From IMG/VR virus record IMGVR_UViG_3300045921_000146, positions 1-64,000 of that record: a stretch of 64,000 bases of DNA; one strand, 5' to 3'. The notes beneath the pieces were generated by a model that saw nothing but the letters and a program-made list of their open reading frames with translations, had not been told where the DNA came from and searched no databases. Both the position numbers and the translations under genes were made by a program. Of the stretch, positions 13,905 to 64,000 are shown piece after piece (position 1 is the stretch's first letter; each line of letters opens with the position of its first letter). The DNA comes from a virus.

Positions 13905-14201
13905 TTAAGAGCCGCTTTTACTACCGTATAATATTTTGACAGTTTCTAATTCTACGTCGTTTGGAAAAACTAATATACTTTTAGTACTAGTTAATACGTC
14001 AAAAGCGTAAGAACTTAAAGTTTGGTCCAATTCTTCGTATTCTTTTCTATTTTGCTCTATACTTTTAGGGGTAAATACAAGAGTTCTACTATTTATACGG
14101 TAACCTTCAAAATCAAGCTTAAACATAGGTTCGGCTTGGTATAGGTAGCCTACGTCGTCCCAACGTTCTGAAATTACTAAGTATTTAAAAGGTTTGTCCA
14201 T
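13905..14201 (-). CDS. Hypothetical protein with C-terminal KILYG tag
   Basis: RBS GGAG; ends ETVKILYGSKSGS. Confidence 0.7.
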   Translation of the reverse strand: MDKPFKYLVISERWDDVGYLYQAEPMFKLDFEGYRINSRTLVFTPKSIEQNRKEYEELDQTLSSYAFDVLTSTKSILVFPNDVELETVKILYGSKSGS

Positions 14202-14213
14202 AAGTAAACTCCG

Positions 14214-14288
14214 CTGGGAAAGCAGGAATCGAACCTGCCCCGTTCTCGATTAACAGTCGAGTGCAAACACCTTGCTCGCTCTTTCCCA
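14214..14288 (-). tRNA. tRNA-Asn (GTT), atypical
   Basis: Acceptor TGGGAAA/TTTCCCA-G; anticodon arm CTCGA-CTGTTAA-TCGAG; T arm GCAGG-TTCGATT-CCTGC; no encoded CCA. Confidence 0.85.
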
Positions 14289-14295
14289 ACGCAAC

Positions 14296-14562
14296 TTACC
14301 GTACAAACAGCACCTTTTCCATTTCAGTTACTTCAAGTAGTTCTGCTAGTTTAACTACTTTAGGCCACAAATGAGGGCTAAACGTCCAATTACTAACCTT
14401 ATAACTCGCCTGGCCAAGGCTGTTTAAATACAACTTATTAAAGGTTATGTGTTGTACTCCCTCTTCGTCAACGTATATTTTTAAGCTTTGTCCTGCTTCG
14501 TAGTCCCAAGCTATTTCTTTAAACAGTTCTGGAAAGATTTGCATGGTATAAGGTTTACTCAT
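14296..14562 (-). CDS. Hypothetical protein (ends EKVLFVR)
   Basis: ORF with GGAG RBS, coupled to the upstream gene. Confidence 0.6.
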   Translation of the reverse strand: MSKPYTMQIFPELFKEIAWDYEAGQSLKIYVDEEGVQHITFNKLYLNSLGQASYKVSNWTFSPHLWPKVVKLAELLEVTEMEKVLFVR

Positions 14563-14884
14563 TAGTTTCTCCAAACAACGCTTTCTCTGCGTACACTCTA
14601 TCGTCTCCCAAACCTAAAACTTTGTCAAGAGCTTTACAGTAACATTCCTGGCAAATAGTTCTATTTAGTTCTTCTGAAAGTCCTTCTTTCCAAGTATAAA
14701 CTACTCCTACAGGTACGTCTTTCTTTTTACATTTTATGCAGTCAATACGGCCAGTAAGTTTAAAACTTTTAGCTGTAACGTCCTCAGCTATGATATCTCC
14801 GGTGTTTAAATAGGGTTTTGGGACTGCGTAAACTGGAGCGGAGTTTGTAGTAACCTTAGTAGGTAACTTTGAGGAGCTACTCAT
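14555..14884 (-). CDS. Zn-finger hypothetical protein (ends EKALFGE..)
   Basis: CIKC...CQEC pairs. Confidence 0.6.
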   Translation of the reverse strand: MSSSSKLPTKVTTNSAPVYAVPKPYLNTGDIIAEDVTAKSFKLTGRIDCIKCKKKDVPVGVVYTWKEGLSEELNRTICQECYCKALDKVLGLGDDRVYAEKALFGETNE

Positions 14885-15167
14885 CTTCGTCTTCTCCAAA
14901 ACCGGAACTGGTGTTAGTTAAATTCTTAGGTGGGGCGCTATACAAAATTTCTTTAATTTTAGTTTCTTTACTTTTCCAAATAACTTTATTTCTATGCTCC
15001 GCTAGAAACTCTATAAGCAATATCAATAAATGTAGAGGGCCAAAGAAGGAGAACAGGCCAGCTACTATAATGTCGTCTATTGTCAATAGCCCTTGCCTTT
15101 TAGCTTTAGTTCGCACTCCTATAAAGAACCCTATAAGCACCCATAACGCTAAAATCTTGTATTCCAT
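14877..15167 (-). CDS. Small membrane protein (KEILYS motif)
   Basis: Two hydrophobic segments. Confidence 0.6.
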   Translation of the reverse strand: MEYKILALWVLIGFFIGVRTKAKRQGLLTIDDIIVAGLFSFFGPLHLLILLIEFLAEHRNKVIWKSKETKIKEILYSAPPKNLTNTSSGFGEDEDE

Positions 15168-15174
15168 AAACCCT

Positions 15175-15588
15175 CTAAATAGTCTGTTTATGCTGTTTTT
15201 TAAGCGCCTTAACTCTAATCAAGCTTTCTTTATAATTATTATTTAAAGTAGTTACAAAATCAATAACTTCTTTGAGTTGGCTTTTAAGGTCGTCGCTAAC
15301 GCAAGGGAGGTTTAGAATTTTATTAGCCTCGTCCAGGTAAACTTGAGTGTCGTTAATTTGGTCTTCTAGTAATTCAATTATTGAATCGTATTCGAGTAGC
15401 AATAAAGTTGGAGGGCTTAGTAAGTCAACCCTTTTAATAATTTGAGTTCTGGCAGAGTCTGCTAATTCAACACTAGCTCGTACTTGGTCCTGGCAGGAAA
15501 TAGCTTTTACTTCAACAGGTCGTTTCTTTGTAGAAGTACAATTAACTGTAAATAGCATTAAAGTTAGTAAGTATTTTAGTTTGTTCAT
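15175..15588 (-). CDS. Putative lipoprotein
   Basis: MNKLKYLLTLMLFTVNC lipobox-like signal. Confidence 0.55.
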   Translation of the reverse strand: MNKLKYLLTLMLFTVNCTSTKKRPVEVKAISCQDQVRASVELADSARTQIIKRVDLLSPPTLLLLEYDSIIELLEDQINDTQVYLDEANKILNLPCVSDDLKSQLKEVIDFVTTLNNNYKESLIRVKALKKQHKQTI

Positions 15589-16079
15589 TAGTCCCACCAG
15601 TAGTGTGAATATTTACCTATAATAGCATAAGCTAATTTAGTATCTCTAACTCTCTGCCGCTCGTCGGCGTCATAAGCTTCGTTATATTCTTTACGCTGTT
15701 GTTTCTTCTTTTCGGGAGTGTCTGCTTTATCCGCTACGGCAGTTAAAAAAGAACCTTCAGAGCCTTCTACTTTTTCAAAAACATATTTTATAGGTCCCCA
15801 CTTCTTTTCGTGTAAATCCATAAACTTGCTGTATTCATTTTTACAAAGCCTATCTAATAGTTTAATAGCCAAGGCTAGAGATTTCCTCTTAGGTTCGTAG
15901 TTCTGACATTCTTCCGAATGATTTGCGTAATGAGTAAATTCGTATTCTAATCGTTTTAGTTTGAATAATACTAATTGATTCAAGTAGTCGTAATCCCAAT
16001 CGTGATTACCCCAACCTATTCTAGCAAAAGCTAAAGCTCTACAGAAACATCTATAATAACGTTTAATTGAACTCAACAT
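15588..16079 (-). CDS. Conserved phage hypothetical protein
   Basis: DWDYDYL..LFKL and a C-terminal WWD, typical of a widespread phage family. Confidence 0.65.
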   Translation of the reverse strand: MLSSIKRYYRCFCRALAFARIGWGNHDWDYDYLNQLVLFKLKRLEYEFTHYANHSEECQNYEPKRKSLALAIKLLDRLCKNEYSKFMDLHEKKWGPIKYVFEKVEGSEGSFLTAVADKADTPEKKKQQRKEYNEAYDADERQRVRDTKLAYAIIGKYSHYWWD

Positions 16080-16711: not shown

Positions 16712-16954
16712 TTATTCTAATGTTGTAGGCCGATACAATACCGCAGCCGGGTCGTCATGGCTAAACACTTCAAATCTGTCGGCAGAAAATGCGCCAAAGT
16801 ACTTACGACCTTCAGCGTTACAGACAGAACAAGTAATGGTGCCGCTAATTAAATTAATACGAGTAGGGCTAACTACTTGTTTAGGTACAGTCCCGTAGCG
16901 TTTACTTTTAGTTCCTGTAAATATATAAACCAAATCTCTTACTTGTAGTTTCAC
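16712..16954 (-). CDS. Small SH3/KOW-like protein (ends AAVLYRP..)
   Basis: LQVRDLV start; overlaps the def stop codon. Confidence 0.55.
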   Translation of the reverse strand: MKLQVRDLVYIFTGTKSKRYGTVPKQVVSPTRINLISGTITCSVCNAEGRKYFGAFSADRFEVFSHDDPAAVLYRPTTLE

Positions 16955-17412
16955 AACTTGTAACCTCTACCCTTCTCTATAAAAGTCACGCCGTCCAGAT
17001 GGTCTAGTTCGTGTTGAATTACCTGGGCCGCTAACCCAACAAACTCATGAGTAAGCTCGTCGCCTTGCGTGTTCTGGTACTTAACTTTAACTATTCTAGG
17101 TCTTTTTACTGTAACAACTTTATTCCCAAAAGACAAACATTTTTCTTCGATGGCTTGCTCTCCAGAAGTACTTAAAATTACTGGGTTTATCATAAACGTA
17201 CAAAAATGGGCGTCGCTAAAAGTGCTAGAATTAATTACTGTAATACGTTTATTTACCCCTACTTGAGGGGCGGCCAACCCTACGCCTCCGGCTAACTTCA
17301 TAGTTATACACATACGTACACATATTTCTCGAACCTCTAGAGAAATATCTTTTACCTCTTGGGCAGGAGTAGTAGCTAGTTCTGAATCTTTTAAGATTTT
17401 GTAAGGCTTCAT
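16951..17412 (-). CDS. def: Peptide deformylase
   Basis: GVGLAAPQVG, EKCLS (variant of EGCLS) and HELDHLDG motifs. Confidence 0.92.
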   Translation of the reverse strand: MKPYKILKDSELATTPAQEVKDISLEVREICVRMCITMKLAGGVGLAAPQVGVNKRITVINSSTFSDAHFCTFMINPVILSTSGEQAIEEKCLSFGNKVVTVKRPRIVKVKYQNTQGDELTHEFVGLAAQVIQHELDHLDGVTFIEKGRGYKL

Positions 17413-18683
17413 TATTTACTCGTACTTCCGCACAACACTTCCGCAGGATACTCAAACTTATCTATTAGGATTTCTCGAACTTGTTGTGCTAATAGTTGTA
17501 CTTCGTACTGAGCCCCTTCGTGGTCTCTAAGCTTAATAAATTGCACCCAGTTTCTTAAGTTTCCAGTCATATAAAACTCAGTGATTAAATCTTGAGGTAG
17601 TACGCCTCTAGCTTGTTCTTTACACACTCCCATAGCTAGCATATCTTCGTATAGTTTTAATGATTGTGCGTGGTGTTCAGCTACTTCTATTTTTAGAGCT
17701 TGTTGGTGTTCTTCCGCTAACGCCCCTTCAGAAGCTTGTCTATTGCTTTTGTGTTGTTTGCGGTACTCATCAGGTAAATAGAACTCCATATTCTTTTCTG
17801 TGTACCTGCGAGAAACTTCGTTGTAAGAATTATGTACGACCATTCCGTTAGCTACAAAATTGTGATTTGGACCTTTTACGCTTAAATCATAAGTTATCTC
17901 TTCTCCTACATATCTGACACTAACTATTTTTTCTTTTTTACCAACTAAAATATTACCTTTTGATTTAACTCTCCAAGATAAAGCGTGTTTTTTGTGTACG
18001 ACTCTATGACAGGATTCGTCTAAAGAGCTTAAGCCGACCAATTCACCATTTGTTATGACGAAACTTTGTTTACTCATAGTAGCGATATTATTTTTAGTTA
18101 GTTCTAAACCTACCGCATCTTCCAACCTTTGCCAGCCACTATCAGTAAGAAGTTTATGATCCTTAGTACATTTAAGTTTTTTACCTGATTCTGTCTCTAA
18201 TTCAAAGATATGTTTTTTGCCACTATATATAACATCAGTTAAATTACTGACAGTAAACTTGTGCGCCTTCTCATCATAACAGCGAATCAACATCTTCTGT
18301 AATCTGCTTTTGTGTACCGGATTGTTCCACAGTTTAAACAAGCGAGTTAATGTAAATTTTTGACCCTTGTTTCCAATCTGCTTAACGTGCACACCTTTTT
18401 TCCATTCAGCAGGACGATTGAAAGTTATTTCTGTGTCTCCAGATAAACAAAATGTACGATGCCTGTGAATTTGACTTCTAATATAAAGTGGACAAGTAAC
18501 TTTAACCGTTAGAGTGCAATGCTCAAACGGACTCATGTGCTGATGGTCAGCTAAGTATTTAATAAGTTTTTTGTCTTTATCGTCTAGTTCAGTTTTAGTA
18601 TTACCAAAACTTACACGAGCGGCATTAACTACTGTAAGGGCTGAGCCCATATGATCTATATACTCTACTTTAAGGTTACTCAT
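17412..18683 (-). CDS. thyX: Flavin-dependent thymidylate synthase, intein-containing
   Basis: VNAARVS and HMSPFEH motifs; the ThyX motif RHRTF|SYNEVSRRY is split by an intein. Confidence 0.93.
   Translation of the reverse strand: MSNLKVEYIDHMGSALTVVNAARVSFGNTKTELDDKDKKLIKYLADHQHMSPFEHCTLTVKVTCPLYIRSQIHRHRTFCLSGDTEITFNRPAEWKKGVHVKQIGNKGQKFTLTRLFKLWNNPVHKSRLQKMLIRCYDEKAHKFTVSNLTDVIYSGKKHIFELETESGKKLKCTKDHKLLTDSGWQRLEDAVGLELTKNNIATMSKQSFVITNGELVGLSSLDESCHRVVHKKHALSWRVKSKGNILVGKKEKIVSVRYVGEEITYDLSVKGPNHNFVANGMVVHNSYNEVSRRYTEKNMEFYLPDEYRKQHKSNRQASEGALAEEHQQALKIEVAEHHAQSLKLYEDMLAMGVCKEQARGVLPQDLITEFYMTGNLRNWVQFIKLRDHEGAQYEVQLLAQQVREILIDKFEYPAEVLCGSTSK
17829..18449 (-). mobile_element. Intein in ThyX (207 aa, no recognisable homing endonuclease)
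   Basis: Starts CLSGDT; block B CTKDHKLLT; ends VVHN followed by Ser. Confidence 0.9.
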
Positions 18684-22042: not shown

Positions 22043-24796
22043 TTATTTTACTGGGCAAACTCCGCCCTCACATTCAAAGGAATCTAAAATAGCCTGTTCG
22101 TCAATTTCTTCAATTTTACTTATAGGCTTACAGTTCTTTACCATTTGCTGGTACTGTTCTTCAGTAATCTCCTCTAAAGGGGCCTGGTCAAACCCGTGTT
22201 CAGAGTGTAGCAAAAAGCTGCAAGTCTTAACCGAGTTGTTGTAGTTTTTATACAACCATTGCTTAATGTCCTCCAACTCCTCTTTTTTATAGTAGATAGT
22301 GACAGATACAGCATTGTCAGACCAGTTACTTTGTAATTCTTTAACTACTTCAAGTTGGTCTACCGCAGTCATATCTTTAGCTACTATAGTATTGTTTGGA
22401 AACTTACAAGGGAAACTAACTACTACAGTACTCATGTCGTTTGAGCCGTCGAAGTTGCGTTGGTACTCTACTGGATAGCCAGCCTTTCTACACAACTCTA
22501 CCAAAGGAATGTTACTAGCCATACGAATTCTTCTAATGTGGTAGTGGCTGTAACCTGGGTGAGCCCCTGGAGTAACGCCAGCTAACAAACTCAAAGTCCC
22601 AGAAGGTTTAACTGTGGTTAATTTAATACTAGTAGGAAAGTCGTGTTTAGCACTGTACTTTCTGTCGTAAATTCTAAGTTGTTCGTACACTTCAGGCAGC
22701 CAACTCTTTTGTTTTTTAGAAGCTTGCATATAACCAGTAACTCCTATACCCATGCGCATATTCTTGTGTACGATGGTTTCTGTTTCTTCTAAATGACAAC
22801 CTAAAGCTAAACTATGTTTATTAATTCTGTATAAGTAAGTAGCTACTTCTAGTAACTCTTCTTTGGATTCTATATTAGGTAAAAATATTTCTGCTAAACA
22901 ACAAGTCTCGTAAGGGGCTAAGCTTTGTTCTGCACAATTAGAAACGTCTAAGCCGCCAGTCCAATAGGTATGTGAAGCGTTGTCTACAGTAATATCGTAA
23001 ACTTCGTGTTCTCCCAGGTAATTTACTTCTCTAACTTCTGCGAAAGTCTCTTCGTCGTTAGGCTTATACAATTCTAAAGCTTCTCTCATTTTTTGCATTT
23101 CGTATTCTTGCAAAAAACCAATTCTAGAGTAAAACTCCCTAAAATCTTTAGTAATGTTTACGTCGTAGTACTCTTTGCCAAACTCCTCGCCGCTATAAAA
23201 TTCTACGGAGGTTGATTTGTTGGTTGTTATGTAAGACCTAATACCTAAACTAGAAAGAACCAGTTGTAATTCTTCTGCTAATTTTTTAGAAGTGGTTTTA
23301 TATGAAACTTTTACTGAATTATCTTTTTGTTTTACAACTGTGCCATTTGCTGAATACAAGCCTCTCAAAAAAGACAGAAGTTCCAACTTATTCAATTTGT
23401 TGCAGTAGTCCAATAGGCTTGTATTTTCATTTCCGTAAATTTTTGTAACTTCTTTTTTACAGTAATCGTTCCCAATAAATTGCCCAGCCCTAATCTGTTC
23501 AGGCATAAAGTCTTCTGGTTTTTCAGCTAGAGGTCCAGAAATTACGTGAACTTCTTTACAAAACTTAGCCTCAACTTTACCTTGCTTAGTTACTAATCTG
23601 TGGTTTTCAGTACCCACGAAACTACCACTAGAAGTTTTATACTCAAAAACAGGTTTGACTCCAGTACTCCATTTATTAACGATCTTAGTCCAACCTTCTT
23701 TAGACCAAATAAAATCCCCAATAGAAATGTCATTAAAGGTTTTTATACCGTCCTTAGTTAGCACTGTAGCAAAACTAGGTTGACACGGATTGAAACCTAG
23801 GACTTCAGGATCTGGATACTGAGTCTCATCTATACGTCCCATACGCTGAGAGTTTCGCAGATTAATGAGTCCGTAAGGCTCTCCATTACCCTTATAACCT
23901 TCCCAAAATTGCACTGGAAGTTGCGAGATATCGTTACATACTATGGAGTTATTTGACATAGCTCTCCAGTTGGGAATGTTGCCCAAGTCCCAACGTTTAG
24001 CATTTAAAAATTGTAAATCGTCCATATCGCCAATAGCTATTTGAGCTGAACGCCGAACATTTCCAGCTACTACAATTTTACCAATAATATTCATAATGTC
24101 TAAGCAGTCAATTGGTCTAACCTTTTTTCCTGCTCTATTATTCAACAACTTATTAATTTCTTCAATGCCCCAGCATAACTCGTCCGGCCCTGAAGCGGAG
24201 CCTCCAAAACCTTTAATAGGAGAACCTTTACTTCTGATACAGATAGTAGAGTAACTAAAACCTTTACCAGTTACGTAGTGAGCTTCCAACGTTTTCTTTA
24301 ACAACTCTACCCAACCTTCTCTACTATCAGGTACGATAAAGTCTGCGTCAGCAGAATCTTTTCTAGTTACTTTAACTTTTTTAGGTTTAGGTAATTCGTA
24401 AACATACTCTTTTTGTATGTTGTACCCCACTCCAGAACCAAGCATCAACATATCCATACACCAAGTAAAAGGTCGAATAGGGTGGTCTACTACGGTAAAG
24501 GCACAGTTCTGTAAACTAGCCAGTCCTAATTTCTTAACTGTTTTAGTGCCCAACTGCCAAAGAAATCTACCTGCTACAGTACCTTTTAGTTGTAACATAA
24601 TTTCTTTTAGTCGTTTTTGTTCTTTGGGCGTGAAACCTACTTTAAGTTGTTTGTCGCAAGCTTCAACTACCCTATCAACAGTCTGCTCCCACTCTTCTGT
24701 AGGAGAATTAGGGTCTGCGTCTTTTAATCTACGAGCATAAGTTCTTTTGTACGAAATGTAACCTACTGGTCCCCAAGGAATTTCTATATTTGACAT
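22043..24796 (-). CDS. nrdJ: Class II (adenosylcobalamin-dependent) ribonucleotide reductase, intein-containing
   Basis: YKRTYAR, AGRFLW, VAGNVRRSA, NP|CAEQ and TVKPSGT motifs; C-terminal CEGGVCP; no beta subunit nearby. Confidence 0.9.
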   Translation of the reverse strand: MSNIEIPWGPVGYISYKRTYARRLKDADPNSPTEEWEQTVDRVVEACDKQLKVGFTPKEQKRLKEIMLQLKGTVAGRFLWQLGTKTVKKLGLASLQNCAFTVVDHPIRPFTWCMDMLMLGSGVGYNIQKEYVYELPKPKKVKVTRKDSADADFIVPDSREGWVELLKKTLEAHYVTGKGFSYSTICIRSKGSPIKGFGGSASGPDELCWGIEEINKLLNNRAGKKVRPIDCLDIMNIIGKIVVAGNVRRSAQIAIGDMDDLQFLNAKRWDLGNIPNWRAMSNNSIVCNDISQLPVQFWEGYKGNGEPYGLINLRNSQRMGRIDETQYPDPEVLGFNPCQPSFATVLTKDGIKTFNDISIGDFIWSKEGWTKIVNKWSTGVKPVFEYKTSSGSFVGTENHRLVTKQGKVEAKFCKEVHVISGPLAEKPEDFMPEQIRAGQFIGNDYCKKEVTKIYGNENTSLLDYCNKLNKLELLSFLRGLYSANGTVVKQKDNSVKVSYKTTSKKLAEELQLVLSSLGIRSYITTNKSTSVEFYSGEEFGKEYYDVNITKDFREFYSRIGFLQEYEMQKMREALELYKPNDEETFAEVREVNYLGEHEVYDITVDNASHTYWTGGLDVSNCAEQSLAPYETCCLAEIFLPNIESKEELLEVATYLYRINKHSLALGCHLEETETIVHKNMRMGIGVTGYMQASKKQKSWLPEVYEQLRIYDRKYSAKHDFPTSIKLTTVKPSGTLSLLAGVTPGAHPGYSHYHIRRIRMASNIPLVELCRKAGYPVEYQRNFDGSNDMSTVVVSFPCKFPNNTIVAKDMTAVDQLEVVKELQSNWSDNAVSVTIYYKKEELEDIKQWLYKNYNNSVKTCSFLLHSEHGFDQAPLEEITEEQYQQMVKNCKPISKIEEIDEQAILDSFECEGGVCPVK
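22937..23785 (-). mobile_element. Intein in RNR (283 aa, degenerate LAGLIDADG)
   Basis: Starts CQPSFAT; GTENHRL; FLRGLYSANG; ends DVSN followed by the catalytic Cys. Confidence 0.88.
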
Positions 24797-24803
24797 ACTA
24801 CCC

Positions 24804-25325
24804 CTACTGCTTGTCGTCTTTAGTTGATTTATGTTTAACGCCTTTTTCGTCAATACGAATTTCAGCGTAATTAATTCTTCCAGTTTTTACAATATTTTTA
24901 ATAATTTTTTGTCTGCGTGAAGGCTTAGAATTGCCAGTCTTAACTTCTATAAAAGTTATTTCTCCCTGGTCAAAGTCGAAGCATATAAAGTCGCAAGGAT
25001 TTCCAAGGAATGAAAGGTCTTTAGGGTTGTATGGACAACCAGATAAGAAAGGTACTAAGTGTTCCCCGATTTGTCCCAATCTAGTTTCGCTAGATTTTTT
25101 TTGAGACAAAAGTGTTCTATTCTTCTCCCTTTCTCTACCTAACTCGTCCTCCAAATTTCTTTGCTCTAGTATAAGTTCTCTTACACTCTGAGTTAATTCT
25201 TTGTTGCTAACTTTAGAATCAATAACTTCTTTTTCGTACGCTCGTAGTTTTTTAATCTCTACTGACAATACAAATACTAAGCCTAATAAAAATACAAAGG
25301 CTCCTGCTACTAGTAAACTAGTCAT
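24804..25325 (-). CDS. Archaeal-type Holliday junction resolvase-like endonuclease with N-terminal TM
   Basis: GQIGEHLVPF..FLGNPCDFICF..IEVKTG. Confidence 0.8.
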   Translation of the reverse strand: MTSLLVAGAFVFLLGLVFVLSVEIKKLRAYEKEVIDSKVSNKELTQSVRELILEQRNLEDELGREREKNRTLLSQKKSSETRLGQIGEHLVPFLSGCPYNPKDLSFLGNPCDFICFDFDQGEITFIEVKTGNSKPSRRQKIIKNIVKTGRINYAEIRIDEKGVKHKSTKDDKQ

Positions 25326-25609: not shown

Positions 25610-26071
25610 CTAAAACTCCACGCTTAAACTAGCGCCATAAGATCCAAAACGAGTTTCGGACCAGGCTCCTAAAAATACAGGTCCGATTATTCTTCTTTCA
25701 ATTCCAACTCTAATATTGTCACTGTCCAAGCCGCCATTACCAATAGTGGCCGCTACTTGTGCTCTCCATTGAGGTTTAAAGTTTTCAACAATCTTACTAG
25801 TATTAGTCTGCTTATCAGTTTCTTTACTAGTTTTCTTTTTAGAGTCGCTAATATTTTCTGTAGTTGTTTCTACTACTTTAGTGCCGTCAGGTTTAGTAGT
25901 TTCTTTAACTATAGTGCGAACTTCTGTCTTCACTCTTTCTACTTCTACTTCAACTACTTGCACTTTAGTTTCAGTCTTAGTAACTACTTTAGCTGGTTGT
26001 AGGTAACGCCCGAAGGCGTAACCTAACAAACCTACCAAAACTACAATAAGTAGTCCTGCTTTTAAATTCAT
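25610..26071 (-). CDS. Envelope protein with C-terminal beta strands ending in Phe (spanin/OMP-like)
   Basis: N-terminal TM, T/K/E-rich linker, ends GASLSVEF. Confidence 0.55.
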   Translation of the reverse strand: MNLKAGLLIVVLVGLLGYAFGRYLQPAKVVTKTETKVQVVEVEVERVKTEVRTIVKETTKPDGTKVVETTTENISDSKKKTSKETDKQTNTSKIVENFKPQWRAQVAATIGNGGLDSDNIRVGIERRIIGPVFLGAWSETRFGSYGASLSVEF

Positions 26072-26907
26072 AGATATACTCCAACATCACCATTTTTAGA
26101 ATGTTGCTCTACAAATTCCTTCTTTTTAAGGTAAGGCATTTTAATAGCATTTTCGGCTTTAATGCGCTCTTTGGGGTCCAACATCCACAAGTTAGTATCT
26201 TCAAAGTCAAAAGCTAGGGGAGCAGAGACTAGAGGGCATTTAGACATTGTAAGCTTGACCACGCCAAAGAAAGTGTAGATCTTTTCAATTTGCGTTCCTT
26301 CCAAAGAAGAGTCGCAAACTACATTAGCAATTACGTCGGCAGCATTATCCTTGATTGCGTGTTTACCTACTACCCAGTACTCGTTTAAAATTAATTTTTG
26401 GTAGGAAGCTAGGGACATTTTCATTCTTTTAGCCATGTCACGCTCAATGTCTTCAATAGTCTTATGAATCCAGGCGCTACGAGTAGTCATCTCTCCAGGA
26501 ATTTGACCACTGACTCCGCCTCTGGCTCTATGTGACATCAAAGTAGCATTAGGTAGGATTACTCGGCGGCCAAGACTTTGTACGGTAATAAAACCCATAG
26601 AAGCTGCAAAAGAAGTAACAGTCACTACTTCTTGCGGAATACTTTTAAGAGTATCAATCAAAGCCATTCCTGCTCCTACACTGCCACCTGGAGTATCCAA
26701 GTACAGATAAATAGTAGAATTTTTAGACAAGCTATTGCTTAGAGCTACCAACTTTTGCTGAAGTTGCGCCACGGAACTATATGTAACAGGTCCCTGCAAA
26801 GCTAAAGTATTACTTTTACTAAGTGTGATTTTCGGCGTAGCCGTCTGCTGCCCTAAGCACACAGAAGCCGTAAAAGTTAGTACTGCCGATAGAATAAATT
26901 TAATCAT
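26068..26907 (-). CDS. ClpP-like serine protease with signal peptide
   Basis: LDTPGGSV, FAASMG and MSH motifs; hydrophobic N-terminus. Confidence 0.8.
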   Translation of the reverse strand: MIKFILSAVLTFTASVCLGQQTATPKITLSKSNTLALQGPVTYSSVAQLQQKLVALSNSLSKNSTIYLYLDTPGGSVGAGMALIDTLKSIPQEVVTVTSFAASMGFITVQSLGRRVILPNATLMSHRARGGVSGQIPGEMTTRSAWIHKTIEDIERDMAKRMKMSLASYQKLILNEYWVVGKHAIKDNAADVIANVVCDSSLEGTQIEKIYTFFGVVKLTMSKCPLVSAPLAFDFEDTNLWMLDPKERIKAENAIKMPYLKKKEFVEQHSKNGDVGVYL

Positions 26908-26916: not shown

Positions 26917-27582
26917 TTATTTGCCCCAAGTATGACCTACGTGAGGGTTAAACTTAATATTATTAAAACTCATATTTTTTTCTTCTAGGCCCAATCTAAT
27001 AAGCCAACCTATAGCTACTCCAAAAGCATCGTAAACGTCTGAAGGAGTTTTTCTATTTGTTTTTGTAATATTGGATACACTTTGTTCTGGTACTTGTACG
27101 TATTCTAATATTTTTTGTTTTGTAGGCTCTTTAAAATCTTTCTTATCATTACGCTTAATCCCTAACGTGGAGCGCCAGCTCTGAGGTAGGATAGAGTCAA
27201 CTGTCACTCCGTTCTCCCATGCGCCAGCTTTAATGGCTCCCTGCATTTCCGGCACTACTTGTACTCCCATCATCTTCTTGGAATTAATAGTGTACTGCTC
27301 AACTACAATGTAGTCAATATTTTGTACGATCCAAAAGTAATTGCACAGAGCATTAAACATATAGTTGTACTTTTGTTGGTGCGGCCACTTAGGGTCCAAC
27401 CAAATAGCTCCTGCGCACTTAAAATCTACTTTTTTAGTCTTAAAGTCTACAGAAGTTACCACATACCCCGTACAACTTGAACTAATATCTAGAAATAGGA
27501 GGTTACTATGTCCTACTTCCATTAGCTTTTCTTGCTGTAGCTGAGATTGTAATTGTTCTAAATCTTGTACTTTATCGCCCAT
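26917..27582 (-). CDS. RuvC-like Holliday junction resolvase
   Basis: FLDISSSCTG, VVEQ and SDVYDA acidic catalytic residues. Confidence 0.75.
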   Translation of the reverse strand: MGDKVQDLEQLQSQLQQEKLMEVGHSNLLFLDISSSCTGYVVTSVDFKTKKVDFKCAGAIWLDPKWPHQQKYNYMFNALCNYFWIVQNIDYIVVEQYTINSKKMMGVQVVPEMQGAIKAGAWENGVTVDSILPQSWRSTLGIKRNDKKDFKEPTKQKILEYVQVPEQSVSNITKTNRKTPSDVYDAFGVAIGWLIRLGLEEKNMSFNNIKFNPHVGHTWGK

Positions 27583-28096
27583 ATTTTGTAAAAAACTCCT
27601 TCTCTAGTTCTTCAGCTAATTTTAGGTCTTGAGCCTTTTTAGCTTGTCTAATTTTTTTTGAAAGTTCTCGTCTTTCCTTCTGCTCCCACATCTGCTTAGT
27701 ATATTCTATCTTAGAATCTACCATTTTGGCAAAATCTTTTGCAGTCTTAACGTCTTTTCCTCTTTTAATGTGGGCAGAATATAAAGCTTCTTTAATCTGT
27801 TTTAAATTGTCATCGTCTCGCTCAGCCAGAGGAATAAGATCTTCAAACATCTTGAGTTTAGCTTCATACTCTTCTCTAGTTTTTGCAGTAACAATAGAAT
27901 TAATAGTCCTTTTAATCTTTCCAATACCTTCTTTGTAAAGCATTTGTTGAGCTTCAATAACTATTTCATTTACTGCTCTAGTATTTAGATCTGGCTTGGA
28001 GTCCTTGTCATCTAACCACAATAATAACTCTAAATACTTAGTTCCTAACCAAGTACCATAGAACCAGTATAGTAATCTATTAAACATCTTCTCCAT
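27572..28096 (-). CDS. Hypothetical helical protein
   Basis: Overlapping ORF within the operon. Confidence 0.6.
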   Translation of the reverse strand: MEKMFNRLLYWFYGTWLGTKYLELLLWLDDKDSKPDLNTRAVNEIVIEAQQMLYKEGIGKIKRTINSIVTAKTREEYEAKLKMFEDLIPLAERDDDNLKQIKEALYSAHIKRGKDVKTAKDFAKMVDSKIEYTKQMWEQKERRELSKKIRQAKKAQDLKLAEELEKEFFTKYGR

Positions 28097-30342: not shown

Positions 30343-30684
30343 TTACACGGTTTTAGAAATATTATTACGATAATCGCCCATACCAATAACTGCTCCCGTA
30401 TAGAACAGCAAGAATTCGTTAATGTCGATAGCATCAGTACGGCTATTGATACGACTATTCTTAATGTCGTTACGGATTAAGTTATAAACTGAACGAAGTT
30501 TTCTGCCTAAGCCTACATTACGAGTAGCGTCCGAACTAGTCAAAAAACGGACCACCTGATTTACAGTAAGTGTGCGGTGGTTGTTTGTAGAATCTCCGAT
30601 AATACTCTTTACTTCTTGAGGGTCCAGACCTACGATTGTATTGGCCAGTTGCTCGTAAAAATTAATATATTTTGGTGCGCTCAT
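30343..30684 (-). CDS. Hypothetical protein
   Basis: GGAGG RBS; TAATG coupling. Confidence 0.65.
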   Translation of the reverse strand: MSAPKYINFYEQLANTIVGLDPQEVKSIIGDSTNNHRTLTVNQVVRFLTSSDATRNVGLGRKLRSVYNLIRNDIKNSRINSRTDAIDINEFLLFYTGAVIGMGDYRNNISKTV

Positions 30685-46612: not shown

Positions 46613-46935
46613 CCTTCTATTCCATACAGTATTTTAACTGTTGTCAAGTCTTTATCTTTTAAGCTTACAAAGTTAGTATGTTTCCATCCATTACTTTGAT
46701 TTTGGTCGTCTTTTTTAATGGGCACTAAGTTCTGCCAAGCCAAGTCTAGGCCTGTTTTATTTTTTATTATTTTAGCTAACTCTTGTTTGCAACCGTTAAA
46801 ATATTTTCCCCCTACAACATAAGTTTTTCCTTTAGTAAAACTTCCCCCATTAAAGCTAATTTCATTACTCTCTGTTTCTAAGCACAAAACTAAATCGCCT
46901 CTTTTTAAGTCTAGTAAATCTTGTAAAGTCATCAT
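46609..46935 (-). CDS. Small SH3/KOW-like protein (ends VKILYGIEG)
   Basis: KRGDLVLC..FTKGKTYVV. Confidence 0.65.
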   Translation of the reverse strand: MMTLQDLLDLKRGDLVLCLETESNEISFNGGSFTKGKTYVVGGKYFNGCKQELAKIIKNKTGLDLAWQNLVPIKKDDQNQSNGWKHTNFVSLKDKDLTTVKILYGIEG

Positions 46936-48996: not shown

Positions 48997-50085
48997 TTAA
49001 TTAATACCTTCAATTTCCAATTTACGAGCATCAGCAAACAATTTAAGAAGTTCTTTGCTTTCTTCAATAACTTTGCGTGCAGACTCTTCCATGTAAAGTT
49101 CACGGCACAAGGCGAAAGCTAAATCTTTGGGGATAGCCAACAAGAATTGTCCCAAATTATCTTTTTCTGAAGCTTCAAACTGTTTACCGTTTTGAGTGTA
49201 CTGTTGAGCCAACTCAAGAATAGAGTCGCTAGTATATTTAAGCATATCAATACGACCTCCAGTTTTAGCGTTAGAATACTTTTTAATGCGAGCCTTCACA
49301 TTTTCAAAATTTTCCACGACTTCTCTAGCCGTGATAGGTTTGTCTTCGCTTTCCAAAGATTTAAGGTATGCTGTGCCAGCCGTTGTGCCTACAAGTCCGC
49401 AAATAAGGTCTCTACGCAAGTGGACAGGCAGTTTGGCCTTCATAAGCTTGTCTACAGCCTCCCAAGACCGACGAGAAGGGGTCACGCCAAGGTCGTAGGC
49501 TTCCAACTCTCCCTGAAGCATTGCAGGTTGTTCAGAAATGAACTGCACGATAGAAGGGTCAAAACCTTTCTTTTTTGCGTAAGAAAGCCACTCTGTTTTG
49601 GAGGGAGCCAATTTAATCTGACAAAAGCGATCCAAAAAAGCTCGGTCAGAAATATCTGTTACTACATAGTCTTGGGTAGAAGGGTTGGCCGCAGCAATAA
49701 CTGACCAACCTTTAGGCAACTTATATTCGTGAAGGCGTTTATCCAATACCAGTTGAAATACAGCTTGCAATACGTCACGGCGGCCACGGTTGATTTCATC
49801 AAGAAAAATAACACCTTGCGACTCTGGGTCTGTAGGAAACCAAGTAGGCTGCATGAATTTAGTAGCTACTTTTTCTCCTCGCTCATTGACTTTAAAGTCG
49901 GCAAGACCTAACAAGTCTCCAACGTCTTGAGTACCAAGGCGCAAGTCAACAAAGCCTAGTTGATTTTCGTCGCAATACTGCCGAACAGCTTGAGACTTAC
50001 CCACTCCATGATGCCCCCATACCAGTACAGCTACTCCAGTTTCTCGGATGAAAGGCAAGCTTTCTTTAAATTGGTTGATATTCAT
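48997..50085 (-). CDS. MoxR-like AAA+ ATPase
   Basis: GHHGVGKS, FLDEINR, AAANP, DRF and SRRSWE. Confidence 0.88.
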   Translation of the reverse strand: MNINQFKESLPFIRETGVAVLVWGHHGVGKSQAVRQYCDENQLGFVDLRLGTQDVGDLLGLADFKVNERGEKVATKFMQPTWFPTDPESQGVIFLDEINRGRRDVLQAVFQLVLDKRLHEYKLPKGWSVIAAANPSTQDYVVTDISDRAFLDRFCQIKLAPSKTEWLSYAKKKGFDPSIVQFISEQPAMLQGELEAYDLGVTPSRRSWEAVDKLMKAKLPVHLRRDLICGLVGTTAGTAYLKSLESEDKPITAREVVENFENVKARIKKYSNAKTGGRIDMLKYTSDSILELAQQYTQNGKQFEASEKDNLGQFLLAIPKDLAFALCRELYMEESARKVIEESKELLKLFADARKLEIEGIN

Positions 50086-51488: not shown

Positions 51489-51695
51489 AGTTTTCTTTAC
51501 TTGCGGCGTAAGAACGTCTAAAGTAGTTTGAGAGGTACATTGCTTAACAATTCGTACCTCTTGAACTTCTTCAGTAATGCGCATACTCTTAACATATTTT
51601 CTGGCTTTAGACAGTTTATCGTAAGTAGTGTCTAAACTACCGTTAATAAGTACAGCGTACATAGTCTCTACAACTTTAGGAGCGTATTTTTTCAT
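51453..51695 (-). CDS. Hypothetical protein
   Basis: Coupled ORF. Confidence 0.55.
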   Translation of the reverse strand: MKKYAPKVVETMYAVLINGSLDTTYDKLSKARKYVKSMRITEEVQEVRIVKQCTSQTTLDVLTPQVKKTLTAAQFDWIGE

Positions 51696-51900
51696 TTACC
51701 ACCAACCTATCGTGAGCAAACAAAGTAGGATAAGTAATCCTCTCTAAATTTTTAAGGTCAAACAATTCGTAACTATTACCATAAATAGGATGGTCAGGTA
51801 CTTGTTGTAAGACCATAAAACTTTCCGAGGAAAAGAACTTCTTAGCAGTTTGTTTGACAACTAAGAATTGATTAGGTTTAAAATTAAACACTCTTTCCAT
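51676..51900 (-). CDS. Small SH3-like hypothetical protein
   Basis: GGAGG RBS; FKPNQFLVV. Confidence 0.55.
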   Translation of the reverse strand: MERVFNFKPNQFLVVKQTAKKFFSSESFMVLQQVPDHPIYGNSYELFDLKNLERITYPTLFAHDRLVVNEKIRS

Positions 51901-52126
51901 AAAGAACCTCCGCTACATCCTTACGAGTAATTATAGCGCATTTGTCTTCAAGCTTACTTTCATAGTAACGCTTCCACTCGTCGTTAGAACCCTTATTGCT
52001 AGTAGGATTCATAACCTTGAGAGTGTATAAATTTTGATTTTTAACAAAATCTACAGCGTCAACAAATAAAAATACTTTTTGTTCTTTGTGAAACAGAATG
52101 TCTGAAACTTTATATTTACTCTTCAT
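51884..52126 (-). CDS. Small SH3/KOW-like protein (ends AEVLYGKSV)
   Basis: KYKVSDIL start. Confidence 0.65.
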   Translation of the reverse strand: MKSKYKVSDILFHKEQKVFLFVDAVDFVKNQNLYTLKVMNPTSNKGSNDEWKRYYESKLEDKCAIITRKDVAEVLYGKSV

Positions 52127-52673: not shown

Positions 52674-52937
52674 TTAAAACTCCCAACGCCAATTTAGCCT
52701 TTTATTGACTATAATCTCATGTATTGCAATACCTGTGCCCACATAAGGCTCAATATCTTTAGGTACATAGCGTTTCTGTAGTCGTTGAACTTTTTTATCT
52801 ATGTTAAAATGTTTTACAAAAGCCTCCCCAGCCATAGGTAAAGCTTGGTTACTGCAATGCAGTTCTTGCTCCAGCTCAAAGGTGGGCGTTTTGGCGGCCA
52901 CTGGAACCATTAAAATAAGTGTCAAAATATTAATCAT
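52674..52937 (-). CDS. Secreted small protein ending WRWEF
   Basis: Signal peptide; beta-signal-like C-terminus. Confidence 0.55.
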   Translation of the reverse strand: MINILTLILMVPVAAKTPTFELEQELHCSNQALPMAGEAFVKHFNIDKKVQRLQKRYVPKDIEPYVGTGIAIHEIIVNKRLNWRWEF

Positions 52938-53160
52938 TTTGTTCCTGCATTTTAGAGTAAAGAACTTTAGCTACTTGAGGGTCTACTTTCATATAAGCAA
53001 TATTGACCATACGTTTAGGAATGGTTAGTAATTGGTCGTCGCTCTCTCTACGAAGAAATACTTTATGTAAGTCAGTCTTTATAACGAAATATAAGTCTTC
53101 GGGATTAGTCTTTTGGCAAATGTAATCATTTTTTTGTAGGTTTACTTTTAATTTACTCAT
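52930..53160 (-). CDS. Small SH3/KOW-like protein (VAKVLYSK)
   Basis: LQKNDYIC; AGGAG RBS. Confidence 0.65.
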   Translation of the reverse strand: MSKLKVNLQKNDYICQKTNPEDLYFVIKTDLHKVFLRRESDDQLLTIPKRMVNIAYMKVDPQVAKVLYSKMQEQND

Positions 53161-55450: not shown

Positions 55451-56014
55451 TTAGTCGTCCCCGAACAGTATCTTCTGTACGTCACTGACAATTTGGCTCT
55501 TGGGTATCCAAATAGGGCCAATAATACCAGCAATTTTGGCCTCTTCTTCAATCTTAGCTATAATTTCTTGAGCCTTGTCTATAGTAGGCCGTTCAATCTT
55601 AAAGTATTTCTTAGCGCAAACAGGGCCAATACCTGTAGCTTTACTAATCTGGTTGTCTAATCCTCTACCGCAACAATGGCAAACAGAAGCTATCTTAGAG
55701 CTAAAAGAAACCTTAACTTGGATAGCTCTGTTACTTTCTGAAACGACCTCTTCAATAACTAAGTTACGAAAAAAGAAAGGTAGCTTTTGAGTTTTAGCAA
55801 GACTTTGAGCTAACCACTTCCTAATAGTAATAGTTTGCCGTACTTTATAAGTAAACTCTTTGGTAGCCTCTTGCTTGGTAAAGAAATTAACAGCGCATTC
55901 TAATTGTTTAGGGGATAGTTGGCCGTACTTCTTAGCTTGGTACTTTAAACTCAGGATAAAAGAATTAGAACCTGAGTAATTGCTAAGTTTTTCGAGAGTT
56001 TGTTGGTTGTCCAT
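55451..56014 (-). CDS. DUF6011-like Zn-finger protein (ends QKILFGDD)
   Basis: LSPKQ; CHCCGRGL..S.ATGIGPVC. Confidence 0.75.
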   Translation of the reverse strand: MDNQQTLEKLSNYSGSNSFILSLKYQAKKYGQLSPKQLECAVNFFTKQEATKEFTYKVRQTITIRKWLAQSLAKTQKLPFFFRNLVIEEVVSESNRAIQVKVSFSSKIASVCHCCGRGLDNQISKATGIGPVCAKKYFKIERPTIDKAQEIIAKIEEEAKIAGIIGPIWIPKSQIVSDVQKILFGDD

Positions 56015-56058: not shown

Positions 56059-56526
56059 CTAACGCCAATAGCTTCGATATGACTCCCAATATTTGTCTAA
56101 ACAGTAGGGCACTGTCAACATTGAGAACATTAAATTCTGAGGGCAGCCGTCTGGCCGCAAGTCTTCGATATGATAAGGGATTTTAAACTCACAATGGATT
56201 AGTTCGTGGTAAATTAAAGCCAAACGACTTTGAGTACTCATATAAATCCATTTATTTTCAAGCACTTCCACTTCTGTAAAAGTTTTAGTCGTTACAAAAG
56301 GCTGTATTCCTTTCTTAGCAGTCCAAACTCTACATTGCGCCAGCCTCCTATTCGGTAGGCTTTTAACGAAATTCACTGAGCTACTAACTGTTACGCCGTA
56401 ATACGCTTCAAAATCAGCTACGTAAGGTTTTAAGCTTGGGGCTATACCTACCTGGCCTCTAGGGTCAGGAAACGAACCGCAAGCCGTTAAAAGCGTTAAA
56501 AAGGCTAAAAGCGACCACTTATTCAT
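56059..56526 (-). CDS. Lipoprotein zinc metallopeptidase
   Basis: LTAC lipobox; HELIHC...H. Confidence 0.75.
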   Translation of the reverse strand: MNKWSLLAFLTLLTACGSFPDPRGQVGIAPSLKPYVADFEAYYGVTVSSSVNFVKSLPNRRLAQCRVWTAKKGIQPFVTTKTFTEVEVLENKWIYMSTQSRLALIYHELIHCEFKIPYHIEDLRPDGCPQNLMFSMLTVPYCLDKYWESYRSYWR

Positions 56527-56773
56527 TTTGGCCTTTCAAAAATAGTATTTTAACCGCTTTAGGTATTTCTGTGGCGGACTCTAAAGGGATAGAGTCATTT
56601 TCATAACTTCTCTGGTAAACTTGATTTTCTGCGCACCAATCTGTTTGACCCCTAAAGTTCTTACATTTAAAATTTTTGGAGCAAAAAACCCTCCTAGCAA
56701 GACCATCGTCTAAAATTTCATCAATATGATAACCTTCGTCGTAAATCATGATTTTTAACTCATACTTAGACAT
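56519..56773 (-). CDS. Hypothetical protein (AVKILFLK)
   Basis: Coupled ORF. Confidence 0.6.
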   Translation of the reverse strand: MSKYELKIMIYDEGYHIDEILDDGLARRVFCSKNFKCKNFRGQTDWCAENQVYQRSYENDSIPLESATEIPKAVKILFLKGQNE

Positions 56774-62106: not shown

Positions 62107-62112
62107 ACCTCT

Positions 62113-62141
62113 AAGGCCTCATAATTGAGGCCCTGTTTTTT
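62113..62141 (+). terminator. Intrinsic terminator
   Basis: GGCCTCA-TAAT-TGAGGCC followed by a T tract. Confidence 0.7.
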
Positions 62142-62381: not shown

Positions 62382-62531
62382 ATGAACAAGCAAGTAATCT
62401 ACAGACCAAACAAAGGCGGACAAAACGGCTGGCTGGACGTATATGTAAACGGTAAACTGAAAATTAGTTTCACCGTTGACGCCGAGCAAGCTCAAGAAAA
62501 AATGGCCGCCATTAAAGAATTGTTGAAATAA
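62382..62531 (+). CDS. Small hypothetical protein (49 aa)
   Basis: GAGGG RBS; downstream of a sigma54-like motif. Confidence 0.55.
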   Translation: MNKQVIYRPNKGGQNGWLDVYVNGKLKISFTVDAEQAQEKMAAIKELLK

Positions 62532-62593
62532 TTGCTTAAGTTATATTAAAAAAAACCGATATAATAATAACAATAAAACAAAGGAGAGATGAG

Positions 62594-62812
62594 ATGAAAA
62601 AACAAGATGTATTTAAAAGACTAGAAGAAGAAGTGATTCGTTCCGGTAAAACTAAGGCTGAATTCATTGCAGAATTGGACAAATCAGCTAGACCAAAGGT
62701 CGGTTTGGCTTATGCTTTCGGCTTAGTTACAGCGGCTTATACAGGTACGTTTAATAATGAGACTGTTTGTCGGTATATCAGAGAATGGAAAAAATCAGGC
62801 CGAGTGTCTTAA
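62594..62812 (+). CDS. Hypothetical protein
   Basis: AAGGAG RBS; sigma28-like motif at 62536-62562. Confidence 0.6.
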   Translation: MKKQDVFKRLEEEVIRSGKTKAEFIAELDKSARPKVGLAYAFGLVTAAYTGTFNNETVCRYIREWKKSGRVS

Positions 62813-62996
62813 TACAAGACGCTTGGTTGGTCGGGTGCCCCTACTCCCCCCAAAGGGGGGACCCGTACCATTTCGATACGCCCACAATAACCAGAGGGAC
62901 ACAGACCTTAAAATTAAAAATCAAAAAACTAACACCACTACCACTTATACCACTTCAATTACAACGAACACAATTAGCCGTAGTTCAATTTAAACC

Positions 62997-63326
62997 TCAA
63001 GGGGTATGGTCAGGTATAGGGTCGGGCTTAAAAACCAACCTGAGCCCTTTTAAAGGGGCGACTTTGTGTTGACTCCCGTACAGGATCATCTCAGTTTTAG
63101 TTATAGGCTTAACTAAACTAATAGGCCAACTATCGTAAGTATTTGTTTTTATTTGTATTATATCTCCGTAGTGAGTTAGTACTGTATATACGCCTTTAAA
63201 TACGTCTAGTATTATTTCTACTCCTACTATCTTTCCTTTTAAAGTTAAACCTAGTACTTGGCCTCGTACGAACTTAGGGGGGGAGTCGGAAGGGGGGTGC
63301 TTTAATTTTTCGTTTTTATTTTTCAT
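62997..63326 (-). CDS. Small SH3/KOW-like protein (TEMILYGS)
   Basis: KFVRGQVL..G.IVGV. Confidence 0.6.
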   Translation of the reverse strand: MKNKNEKLKHPPSDSPPKFVRGQVLGLTLKGKIVGVEIILDVFKGVYTVLTHYGDIIQIKTNTYDSWPISLVKPITKTEMILYGSQHKVAPLKGLRLVFKPDPIPDHTP

Positions 63327-63349
63327 CTAGTTCTAAAATTTTAAAAAAA

Positions 63350-63577
63350 TTATTTTTCGGGGTTGCTGTATAGTATTTCAGCTACTGGGTCTACTATTTT
63401 AAATCTTTTACTATGTATTCTACTAGTACCTACGGTGTAAGTTCTACCTGTGCCTAAGTTTTTTACGTGGTAGCCTATCAAGTATTTGTCTACGTAGTGG
63501 TGCCCTGTTATTTGGTATTCGTACATGGACGTCTTCAAAATCAAACCTACGGGGTATCGGCTAAAGTTTGGGGGCAT
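63350..63577 (-). CDS. Small SH3/KOW-like protein (ends VAEILYSNPEK)
   Basis: RYPVGLIL start. Confidence 0.65.
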   Translation of the reverse strand: MPPNFSRYPVGLILKTSMYEYQITGHHYVDKYLIGYHVKNLGTGRTYTVGTSRIHSKRFKIVDPVAEILYSNPEK

Positions 63578-63587
63578 CGTTAAGCCT

Positions 63588-63866
63588 TTAGTCCTCGTCA
63601 GGTTGACTTAATTGGTTTAAGTGTTCTTTTTTTACGTACAAGGTAATTTCTGCTTGAGTCAAGGGTCTAGTTTTAAGGGTAGTTTCTTTTATTGGGAATA
63701 TTTTGTTCATGGTCATTATACTTAGTATTGTAGTTACTGTTTCGTCGTCTACTACTACGAATTCTAATTTTAGTCCTTCTGGTAGTACTTCTACTACCTT
63801 ACAATAGGTGAACCCCTTCTCCCCAGGATTTATGGCCGTACGTAGGTCTCCTACCTTAAAGCTCAC
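63588..63866 (-). CDS. Small SH3/KOW-like protein (AEITLYV)
   Basis: MSFKVGDL start; GGAGG RBS. Confidence 0.65.
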   Translation of the reverse strand: MSFKVGDLRTAINPGEKGFTYCKVVEVLPEGLKLEFVVVDDETVTTILSIMTMNKIFPIKETTLKTRPLTQAEITLYVKKEHLNQLSQPDED

Positions 63867-64000
63867 TTAGCCTCCGGCCCGTACAGGATAAGTTCAGCGT
63901 CAGTAGCCTTTCTAAACATAGTGTGTACTAAGGCGGTAGCCAATTCTGTACCTACTCCTTGGTAAACCAAACCTGGGTAGGCTACGACGTACCTAGGGAC
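63863..64000 (-). CDS. Partial ORF ending AELILYGPEAK
   Basis: Open frame from the window end to TGA at 63863, overlapping the next GTG. Confidence 0.55.
   Translation of the reverse strand, partial: VPRYVVAYPGLVYQGVGTELATALVHTMFRKATDAELILYGPEAK

Follow-up and report, generated by a model that had tools for sequence, protein, structure and literature searches.

A short C-terminal L-[YF]-G helix shared by many small proteins of an uncultured phage lineage

Genome and sequence sets

The window analyzed here is the first 64 kb (64,000 nucleotides) of a 97.5-kb uncultured viral contig (IMG/VR record IMGVR_UViG_3300045921_000146; G000 below), which was rated 85% complete by CheckV. Its subject is a short peptide, called the tag below, which stands at or near the C-terminal end of many small and otherwise dissimilar proteins. 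The window has a G+C content of 38%. Tail and fibre genes occupy the + strand at 1–13.7 kb, followed by a leftward block at 13.9–64.6 kb in which many small open reading frames (ORFs) are interspersed with genes for replication and nucleotide metabolism, encoding PolA, a primase-helicase, ligase, RecA, Erf, ribonucleotide reductase (RNR), ThyX, dUTPase and a deoxynucleoside monophosphate kinase. Two ClpP-like proteases and a MoxR protein with a DUF2201-VWA protein are encoded in the same block.

No close cultured relative was found in INPHARED, where the terminase was at most 27% identical to any entry. Relatives were found by terminase among IMG/VR contigs at 66–73% identity, and six of them (G001–G005 and G009, the last 91% complete) were obtained whole or nearly so. 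The control set consisted of 80 unrelated viral loci from the DUF6011 search, AT-rich ones included, comprising 1.2 Mb and 1699 small ORFs.

Tagged genes in the window

A sequence-only reading of this DNA had listed 15 near-terminal peptides. Each of them was recovered at its coordinates, at the C-terminal end of a minus-strand ORF, and four further tags were located just beyond the window at 64238 (-), 65276 (+), 65544 (+) and 65773 (+), the three on the + strand lying directly upstream of the terminase gene.

Nine of the 15 are canonical (a hydrophobic residue, L, Y or F, then G or S, followed by 3–8 residues). LETVKILYG (13923–13949) stands six residues before the stop codon of a 98-residue ORF (13905–14201), the last gene of the leftward operon; its Tyr codon is TAC and there is no downstream gene, which excludes an explanation by the ATG or ribosome-binding site of a following gene. 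VYAEKALFG (14570–14596) belongs to a Cys-rich ORF of 114 residues (14555–14899), in which the GGAGAA encoding F-G-E doubles as the ribosome-binding site of the next gene; two paralogues of this protein in the relative G003 end in EDVLYGE and EEVLYDD. AQVLEVLYG (44208–44234) is carried by a helical-looking orphan ORF of 170 residues (44199–44711) for which no homologue was found among 5.8e9 proteins; here GAGGT and TAT-G supply the ribosome-binding site and ATG of the gene at 43973–44212. LTTVKILYG (46621–46647) was found in a 108-residue ORF (46609–46935), and KDVAEVLYG (51896–51922) in an 80-residue ORF (51884–52126), where TAT-G contains the ATG of the gene at 51676–51900 and the G001 orthologue ends in VKNLYL. 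PQVAKVLYS (52954–52980) is part of a 76-residue ORF (52930–53160) with a G001 orthologue ending in ATLLYKDD..., and SDVQKILFG (55460–55486) follows the conserved ending WIPKSQI of a 187-residue DUF6011 zinc-ribbon protein (55451–56014). The remaining two are DPVAEILYS (63365–63391), in a 75-residue ORF (63350–63577), and TDAELILYG (63878–63904), in an 89-residue ORF (63863–64132 of the genome) of which the 3′ part (63863–64000) is inside the window.

Three variants have another residue after Y/F: TEMEKVLFV (14302–14328) in a 92-residue ORF (14296–14574) whose next gene is 95 nucleotides away, DDPAAVLYR (16730–16756) in an 80-residue ORF (16712–16954) and PKAVKILFL (56537–56563) in an 84-residue ORF (56519–56773). 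In three other proteins the tag lies 15–26 residues from the C-terminal end. TKIKEILYS (14937–14963) is followed by a 20-residue acidic tail in a 96-residue ORF (14877–15167) with two hydrophobic, probably membrane-spanning segments, TKTEMILYG (63075–63101) by a 26-residue Pro-rich tail in a 109-residue ORF (62997–63326), and the weak variant TQAEITLYV (63633–63659) stands 15 residues from the end of a 92-residue ORF (63588–63866).

The absence of the tag from structural proteins, also part of the sequence-only reading, held: the only apparent match (69652–69930, MLYKKKK) is not kept in orthologues and was rejected. Tag-like endings of ThyX (AEVLCG) and of the genes at 36063 (KEVLNG) and 25318 (NEALLG) had no support from orthologues and were discarded, as was the sole tag on a large protein (521 residues, tail module of G003), which is not kept in orthologues and was attributed to chance.

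Enrichment and restriction to one lineage

Within the last 15 residues of the proteins, the pattern [IVLA]L[YF][GS] was counted 11 times, while the remaining 28,111 positions contain it 10 times, which makes it 12-fold enriched near the C-terminus. Strict tags were present on 14 of the 117 small ORFs of G000; when residues were shuffled within the small proteins (2000 trials), the mean was 1.3 and the maximum 7. In de novo counts of C-terminal tripeptides, LYG ranked first in G000 and in four relatives, with 43 terminal occurrences in the pooled counts against 3.4 expected.

Across the lineage (nine relatives), 112 of 655 small ORFs, roughly one in six, carried a strict tag. Among the unrelated control loci 10 of 1699 small ORFs matched the strict pattern and none ended in LYG, so that the excess in the lineage is about 25–30-fold (odds ratio ~31, p = 1e-42 for the lineage set before G009 was added, 83/533 small ORFs). 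Chance as the cause of the tag is ruled out by the positional excess, the shuffles, the de novo counts and the control loci. The tag was present in all six relatives obtained whole or nearly so. Genomes of the lineage have 14–33 tags each, and in some gene arrays up to every second small protein is tagged. Tagged genes are arranged head-to-tail in arrays of 7–13; G001 has 13 in a tandem run, each of L004, L006 and L007 has 11 tagged small ORFs within 10 kb upstream of terminase, and in G009 ~33 of 122 small ORFs are tagged. The tag is thus a lineage-wide trait that is nearly absent elsewhere, and one handle marks a large share of the small, fast-evolving orphan genes of these phages.

Literature searches returned no description of the motif. 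Short terminal peptides common to unrelated phage proteins were already known; what stands out here is the scale on which one terminal peptide is shared, together with the second role of its codons in starting the next gene.

Anatomy of the tag

Tags were aligned on Leu (position 0). The profile has N/D at -7, T/S/P at -6, E/D/P (mostly E/D) at -5, hydrophobic or small residues at -4 and -3, K/E/R/Q at -2 and V/I/L/T at -1, then L at 0, Y (77%) or F at +1 and G (42%) or K/D/S/E at +2. Y/F is followed by 1–11 (up to 26) residues, which vary and are mostly charged, and the stop codon usually comes 1–6 residues after the tag. This profile predicts a two-turn amphipathic helix of ~9 residues with an N-cap (T/S/D/P) and a Gly C-cap. 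The helix would have a narrow polar stripe, with five of eight positions hydrophobic over an arc of ~200 degrees; conservation of L and Y/F is much stricter than that of the other hydrophobic positions. The median length of the tagged proteins is 88 residues, and the tag comes directly after a beta-strand-like segment (for example FKIV-DP, ILVF-PND and WIPKSQI-VS), with no flexible linker between them.

A short, C-terminal amphipathic helix with an L-[FY]-G end and a mean hydrophobic moment of 0.39 could be a membrane-targeting helix of the MinD/FtsA type, in which case the hub would be the inner face of the membrane. The end of E. coli MinD, FLKRLFGG, is similar in length, position and L-[FY]-G ending. 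However, the MinD peptide is cationic (+3), whereas the tags are neutral to acidic: the mean net charge of the tag region is -0.37, 49% of tags are at or below -1 and only 16% at or above +2, and position -5 is mostly E/D. Membrane targeting is accordingly considered very unlikely.

Codon use and gene junctions

All six Leu codons are used in the tag, the Y/F codons are TAT (69), TAC (21), TTT (19) and TTC (3), and third codon positions carry only 0.1–0.5 bits, in agreement with the synonymous variation and protein-level conservation described in the sequence-only reading. That reading had treated overlap with the next gene's ribosome-binding site and ATG as a minor caveat for a few genes. This underestimated the overlap: 52 of 112 strict tags (46%) provide, in the TAT-G of Tyr-Gly/Asp/Glu, the ATG start codon for a downstream ORF that is at least 40 residues long, and the [KER][VI] codons (AAGGT, GAGGT, AGGA) often supply its Shine-Dalgarno sequence. 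Because the ATG of the next gene sits in the TAT-G of the tag, these overlaps are 14, 17, 20 or 23 nucleotides long; junctions of this kind lie in the window at, for example, 44208–44215 and 51896–51903.

Such an arrangement could have arisen with a functionless peptide if tandem cassette duplication had left a gene junction as a relic, its 3′ end frozen by its second role as ribosome-binding site and ATG while the bodies diverged. The 52 tags with a downstream ATG, the Shine-Dalgarno sequences, the head-to-tail arrays and the use of the frame xAT-Gxx by 157 of 181 lineage overlaps of 5–45 nucleotides are all consistent with this origin. However, the 60 of 655 small ORFs whose tags have no ATG overlap are by themselves 17-fold enriched (odds ratio 17, p = 1e-24; for G000 alone 10 tags, p = 9e-8), so the motif stays above background when overlaps are removed. 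The codons TAC, TTT and TTC, used by 43 of 112 tags, are incompatible with an ATG, and the Leu in the spacer is invariant as a residue while free in all six codons and in third positions. Where ATG starts lie in the xAT-G frame in the lineage, the residue is Tyr in 61 of 121 cases and is preceded by Leu in 56 of 121; in other phages the xAT-G overlaps fall on N, Y, H and D at similar frequencies, without a bias to Tyr or a preceding Leu. The tag is also kept by the operon-last gene at 13905 and by the DUF6011 gene of G000, which has a 138-nucleotide gap downstream and the Phe codon TTC. A junction relic is therefore improbable.

Because third positions are free, all six Leu codons occur and the excess survives removal of overlaps, the tag must have been selected as a peptide. 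A DNA-level signal or a pure ribosome-binding site/ATG artefact is ruled out as the sole cause by the codon variety and the surviving 17-fold excess. The tag is under protein-level selection, and its codons are used twice in the compact gene arrays: the next gene starts in the Tyr-Gly codons of about half of the tags, where one stretch of 15 nucleotides serves two genes.

Protein bodies and portability of the tag

No BLAST links were found among the tagged proteins of G000, and 115 loosely defined tagged proteins of the lineage fell into 100 BLAST components. Pfam and PHROG searches of the tagged proteins gave nothing except DUF6011, and a search of the ESM Atlas returned only sub-threshold matches and no structure. 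Most tagged proteins of G000 have no homologue even in close relatives, and the tag is kept all the same; where orthologues exist, it is retained. To judge by these comparisons, bodies without detectable sequence similarity share a portable tag.

The DUF6011 protein provides a direct view of this portability. Among 62 homologues the body ends in GPIWIPKSQI. The 24 closest (47–64% identity) add [VL][ST]xAxQ[VI]LF[GED]xE, whereas ~30 more distant ones end within a few residues of KSQIK or have unrelated tails and lack the tag. Since the distant homologues have the same body without the helix, the helix is an add-on that is dispensable for the fold. The loci L037–L050, which encode full-length DUF6011 homologues (32–47% identical), have essentially no tags on their small ORFs. 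From the pattern of endings, the DUF6011 protein acquired its tag secondarily and kept it within one lineage. G006, the contig with the nearest viral DUF6011 homologue lacking the tag, was considered as a tag-less sister lineage for subtracting gene content and rejected, as a related terminase was absent.

The family of the protein at 65276, just beyond the window, comprises 49 clusters among 1.8e9 representatives, nearly all of which end in ...EITDKxxhxxLxhLYG. L89 and Y90 belong to the four columns with the highest conservation in this family and exceed every position of the barrel core.

Comparison with known systems

In phage T4, the end of gp43 (EKASLDFLFG) and the LDFLF of ligase form an amphipathic helix of which three consecutive hydrophobic residues enter a pocket of gp45 (PMC6212786), and the ends of gp33 and gp55 are interchangeable with the gp45-binding epitope (PMC2988020). 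The tag resembles this epitope as a short amphipathic helix of hydrophobic and acidic character, with three hydrophobic residues and then Gly, near the C-terminus of unrelated proteins; both its profile and its charge have the T4-type form. The two systems differ in that T4 joins four or five replication and transcription proteins to one partner behind a flexible linker, whereas here 14–33 small accessory proteins per genome carry the tag without a linker, the enzymes are untagged and a clamp gene was not detected by the profiles listed below. The tag does not match the bacterial beta-clamp motif (QL[SD]LF), since there is no preference for Gln and the consensus is φ-φ-[KER]-[VI]-L-[YF]-G (φ, hydrophobic).

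The internal proteins of T4 are hypervariable and unrelated, and have in common a capsid targeting peptide of ~10 residues. That peptide stands at the N-terminus and is cut by the prohead protease, and its reader is the scaffolding core. Here too, hypervariable small phage proteins share only a short peptide, but it is C-terminal, cleavage is not evident and the scaffold-like protein lacks it. In epsilon15 (L123), the gp6 protease/scaffold (5224–5940) ends in ...ISAFYPKK and gp10 (7705–8040) in ...KDAFYPDGEDD, and from these endings a hook of two hydrophobic residues, Tyr and a helix breaker on two head proteins is real in that phage. The tag shares with it a C-terminal ending of this form on unrelated proteins; the carriers are two head-module proteins in epsilon15 and dozens of small non-structural proteins here.

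SspB has a variable, target-binding small-barrel body and a constant C-terminal ClpX-binding peptide, reached by a long flexible linker and containing the basic motif LRVVK. The tagged proteins resemble SspB and the viral F-box and BC-box families in joining a variable body to a constant short C-terminal docking peptide. They differ from SspB, with its long linker and basic motif, and a protease partner is putative here.

Docking in trans or capping in cis

The best single explanation is that the tag is a common docking helix, an addressing tag read by one partner, to which a probability of roughly 45% was assigned; we infer that the reading takes place in trans. The lineage would append the tag to a big and rapidly changing set of small accessory proteins, most of them probably early or middle proteins and many of them small SH3-like barrels. 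The hydrophobic residues of [IV]-L-[YF] would plug into a hydrophobic pocket of the common partner, and the carriers would be handled together, on the model of the T4 LDFLF(G) helix that joins several unrelated proteins to gp45. If one partner does read the tag, dozens of orphan proteins would have a common pathway, and a sequence rule for metagenomes would follow.

A serious though less probable alternative requires no external reader: the tag would be a structural cap helix acting in cis, in a hugely expanded and hyper-divergent superfamily of SH3-like barrels, where it packs on the barrel or oligomerises and is the slowest-evolving piece. Even so, it would define a large, lineage-specific expansion of small barrel proteins. 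Several results favor such a cap and weigh against docking. When the tags were trimmed, weak matches (at least 20 bits) between bodies within a genome were found for 1.2% of tagged pairs and 0.25% of tagged-versus-untagged pairs, and from this 4-fold excess some tagged bodies are paralogous. The AlphaFold2 model of the 65276 family (predicted local distance difference test, pLDDT, 83) has barrel strands at residues 20–24, 27–36, 44–50 and 67–70 and then a helix at 80–90, which contains the tag and is predicted with pLDDT >90, as would be the case for a helix packed on its own barrel. The model of the DUF6011 protein (pLDDT 92) has an N-terminal three-helix bundle and an SH3/Sm-like barrel (residues ~52–177) into which a CxxC...C zinc ribbon and two helices are inserted; the last strand (IIGPIWIP) leads directly into the tag helix (178–183). 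For both modelled bodies the prediction is thus an SH3-like barrel whose last strand runs straight into the tag helix, and this shared local context makes a structural role in cis plausible. A free docking tail is also made less likely by the lack of a flexible linker, the hydrophobic arc of ~200 degrees would be more usual for a buried helix than for a linear motif, and the median length of the tagged proteins would suit small barrels. Fold searches with the modelled bodies gave only generic SH3/Tudor/CAP-Gly/R67-DHFR matches (Z ≤6.1); for DUF6011 there was no close solved structure among them, the best Z being 5.3.

Other results argue against the cap. The ~30 DUF6011 homologues that keep the barrel and end without the helix indicate that the fold does not need it, and the final block of the DUF6011 model has a pLDDT of 64, compared with 92 for the body. 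L and Y/F are stricter than the other hydrophobic positions. The proteins at 14877 (a probable transmembrane hairpin) and 44199 (helical) appear from their sequences to be non-barrel carriers of the tag. Small barrels abound in other phages, yet LYG ends none of the 1699 small ORFs of the control loci. The possibility that the motif is a buried core element of a single homologous fold is weakened by the DUF6011 homologues and favored by the SH3-like models, and the earlier statement that the bodies differ holds for their sequences, which have no detectable similarity, and less so for the two modelled folds.

The docking helix is further weakened by the outcome of the search for its partner, as no reader was found by clamp profiles or by scaffold comparison. 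The clamp models PF02916, PF09116, PF00712 and PF02768 had no match at E ≤ 1 in G000, and PF02916 and PF02768 had none in G001–G005. A phage clamp as the hub was rejected on these negative searches (four models in G000, two in the five relatives), although a highly diverged clamp might escape the models and the phage might use that of its host. PolA, ligase, primase-helicase, RecA and exonuclease all end without the tag. The scaffold-like protein (315 residues; L001:8644–9591, corresponding to genome 72644–73591, +), encoded directly upstream of the capsid gene, also lacks the tag and ends in ...NSAFKTR, its L034 homologue in NTAFRMK. The capsid protein resembles those of Pseudomonas and Xanthomonas siphoviruses and not that of epsilon15. 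Capsid docking shared with the scaffold was rejected on both grounds, and virion loading, one of the routes first proposed for the tag, is without support because the scaffold-like protein does not share it. Thus, of the proposal that a shared helical tag routes accessory proteins to one hub, the portable protein-level helix was borne out, while the hub was not found.

Candidate readers

If the tag is a docking helix, its reader could be a protease or AAA+ machine for which the tag serves as a degron or adaptor handle, although this is unlikely. The free-carboxylate type of degron (ssrA/ClpX, tail-specific protease) does not match, as residues follow Y/F; an internal, Lon-type degron is possible. 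The procapsid, a host hub such as the beta clamp and another phage protein were each judged still less likely as the reader. Genes common to G000, G001 and G009 include 24 non-structural ones, among them those for both ClpP-like proteases, for the DUF2201 VWA/metallopeptidase (47513–48907) and for five conserved proteins of no assigned function (27572–28096, 30343–30684, 30684–31262, 41090–41494 and 44708–45595), and these conserved core genes are the obvious candidates for a phage-encoded reader. MoxR (48997–50085) also counts among the conserved core, and the ClpP and MoxR-VWA systems named in the sequence-only reading are putative hubs. The two ClpP/S49-like proteases (26068–26907 and 34318–35121, both -) are candidate tag readers. 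Their genes belong to the replication module, well separated from the head genes, and are kept in G001 and G009.

A more specific form of docking, also doubtful at present, is that the tagged proteins are a phage adaptor library in which each variable small body, often an SH3-like barrel, would grip a host or phage target of its own and the constant helix would plug into one machine, for example a protease/AAA+ complex or the assembling capsid. Phages would then have an equivalent of the F-box, BC-box and PRANC families known from eukaryotic viruses, or of T4 capsid targeting in a C-terminal form, and up to a fifth of the phage's genes would be involved.

Other conserved endings and inserts

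The scaffold-like protein has a conserved C-terminal end of its own, ...LDAI[RK]SGxxN[ST]AF[KR]xx, in G000 and L034, and this ending may be the true coat-docking tail of the lineage.

A conserved 192-residue protein (30684–31262, -), whose gene adjoins that of PolA, ends in RSLFEIYKKEDK, which differs from the LYG tag; its orthologues end in RSLFDMYADKL (G001) and RSLFEIFVKG (G009). Searches of Pfam and PHROG gave no match for this protein. The polymerase of phage RB69 ends in SLFDMFDF. By analogy, the ending of the 192-residue protein recalls PCNA-interacting protein (PIP)-like or clamp-binding peptides such as T4 LDFLF, with no clamp gene detected by the Pfam models given above.

Inteins or homing-endonuclease inserts were observed in three essential genes on the - strand, those for ThyX, class II RNR and the primase-helicase; the positions in the window are 17412–18683, 22043–24853 and 37772–40822 (-).

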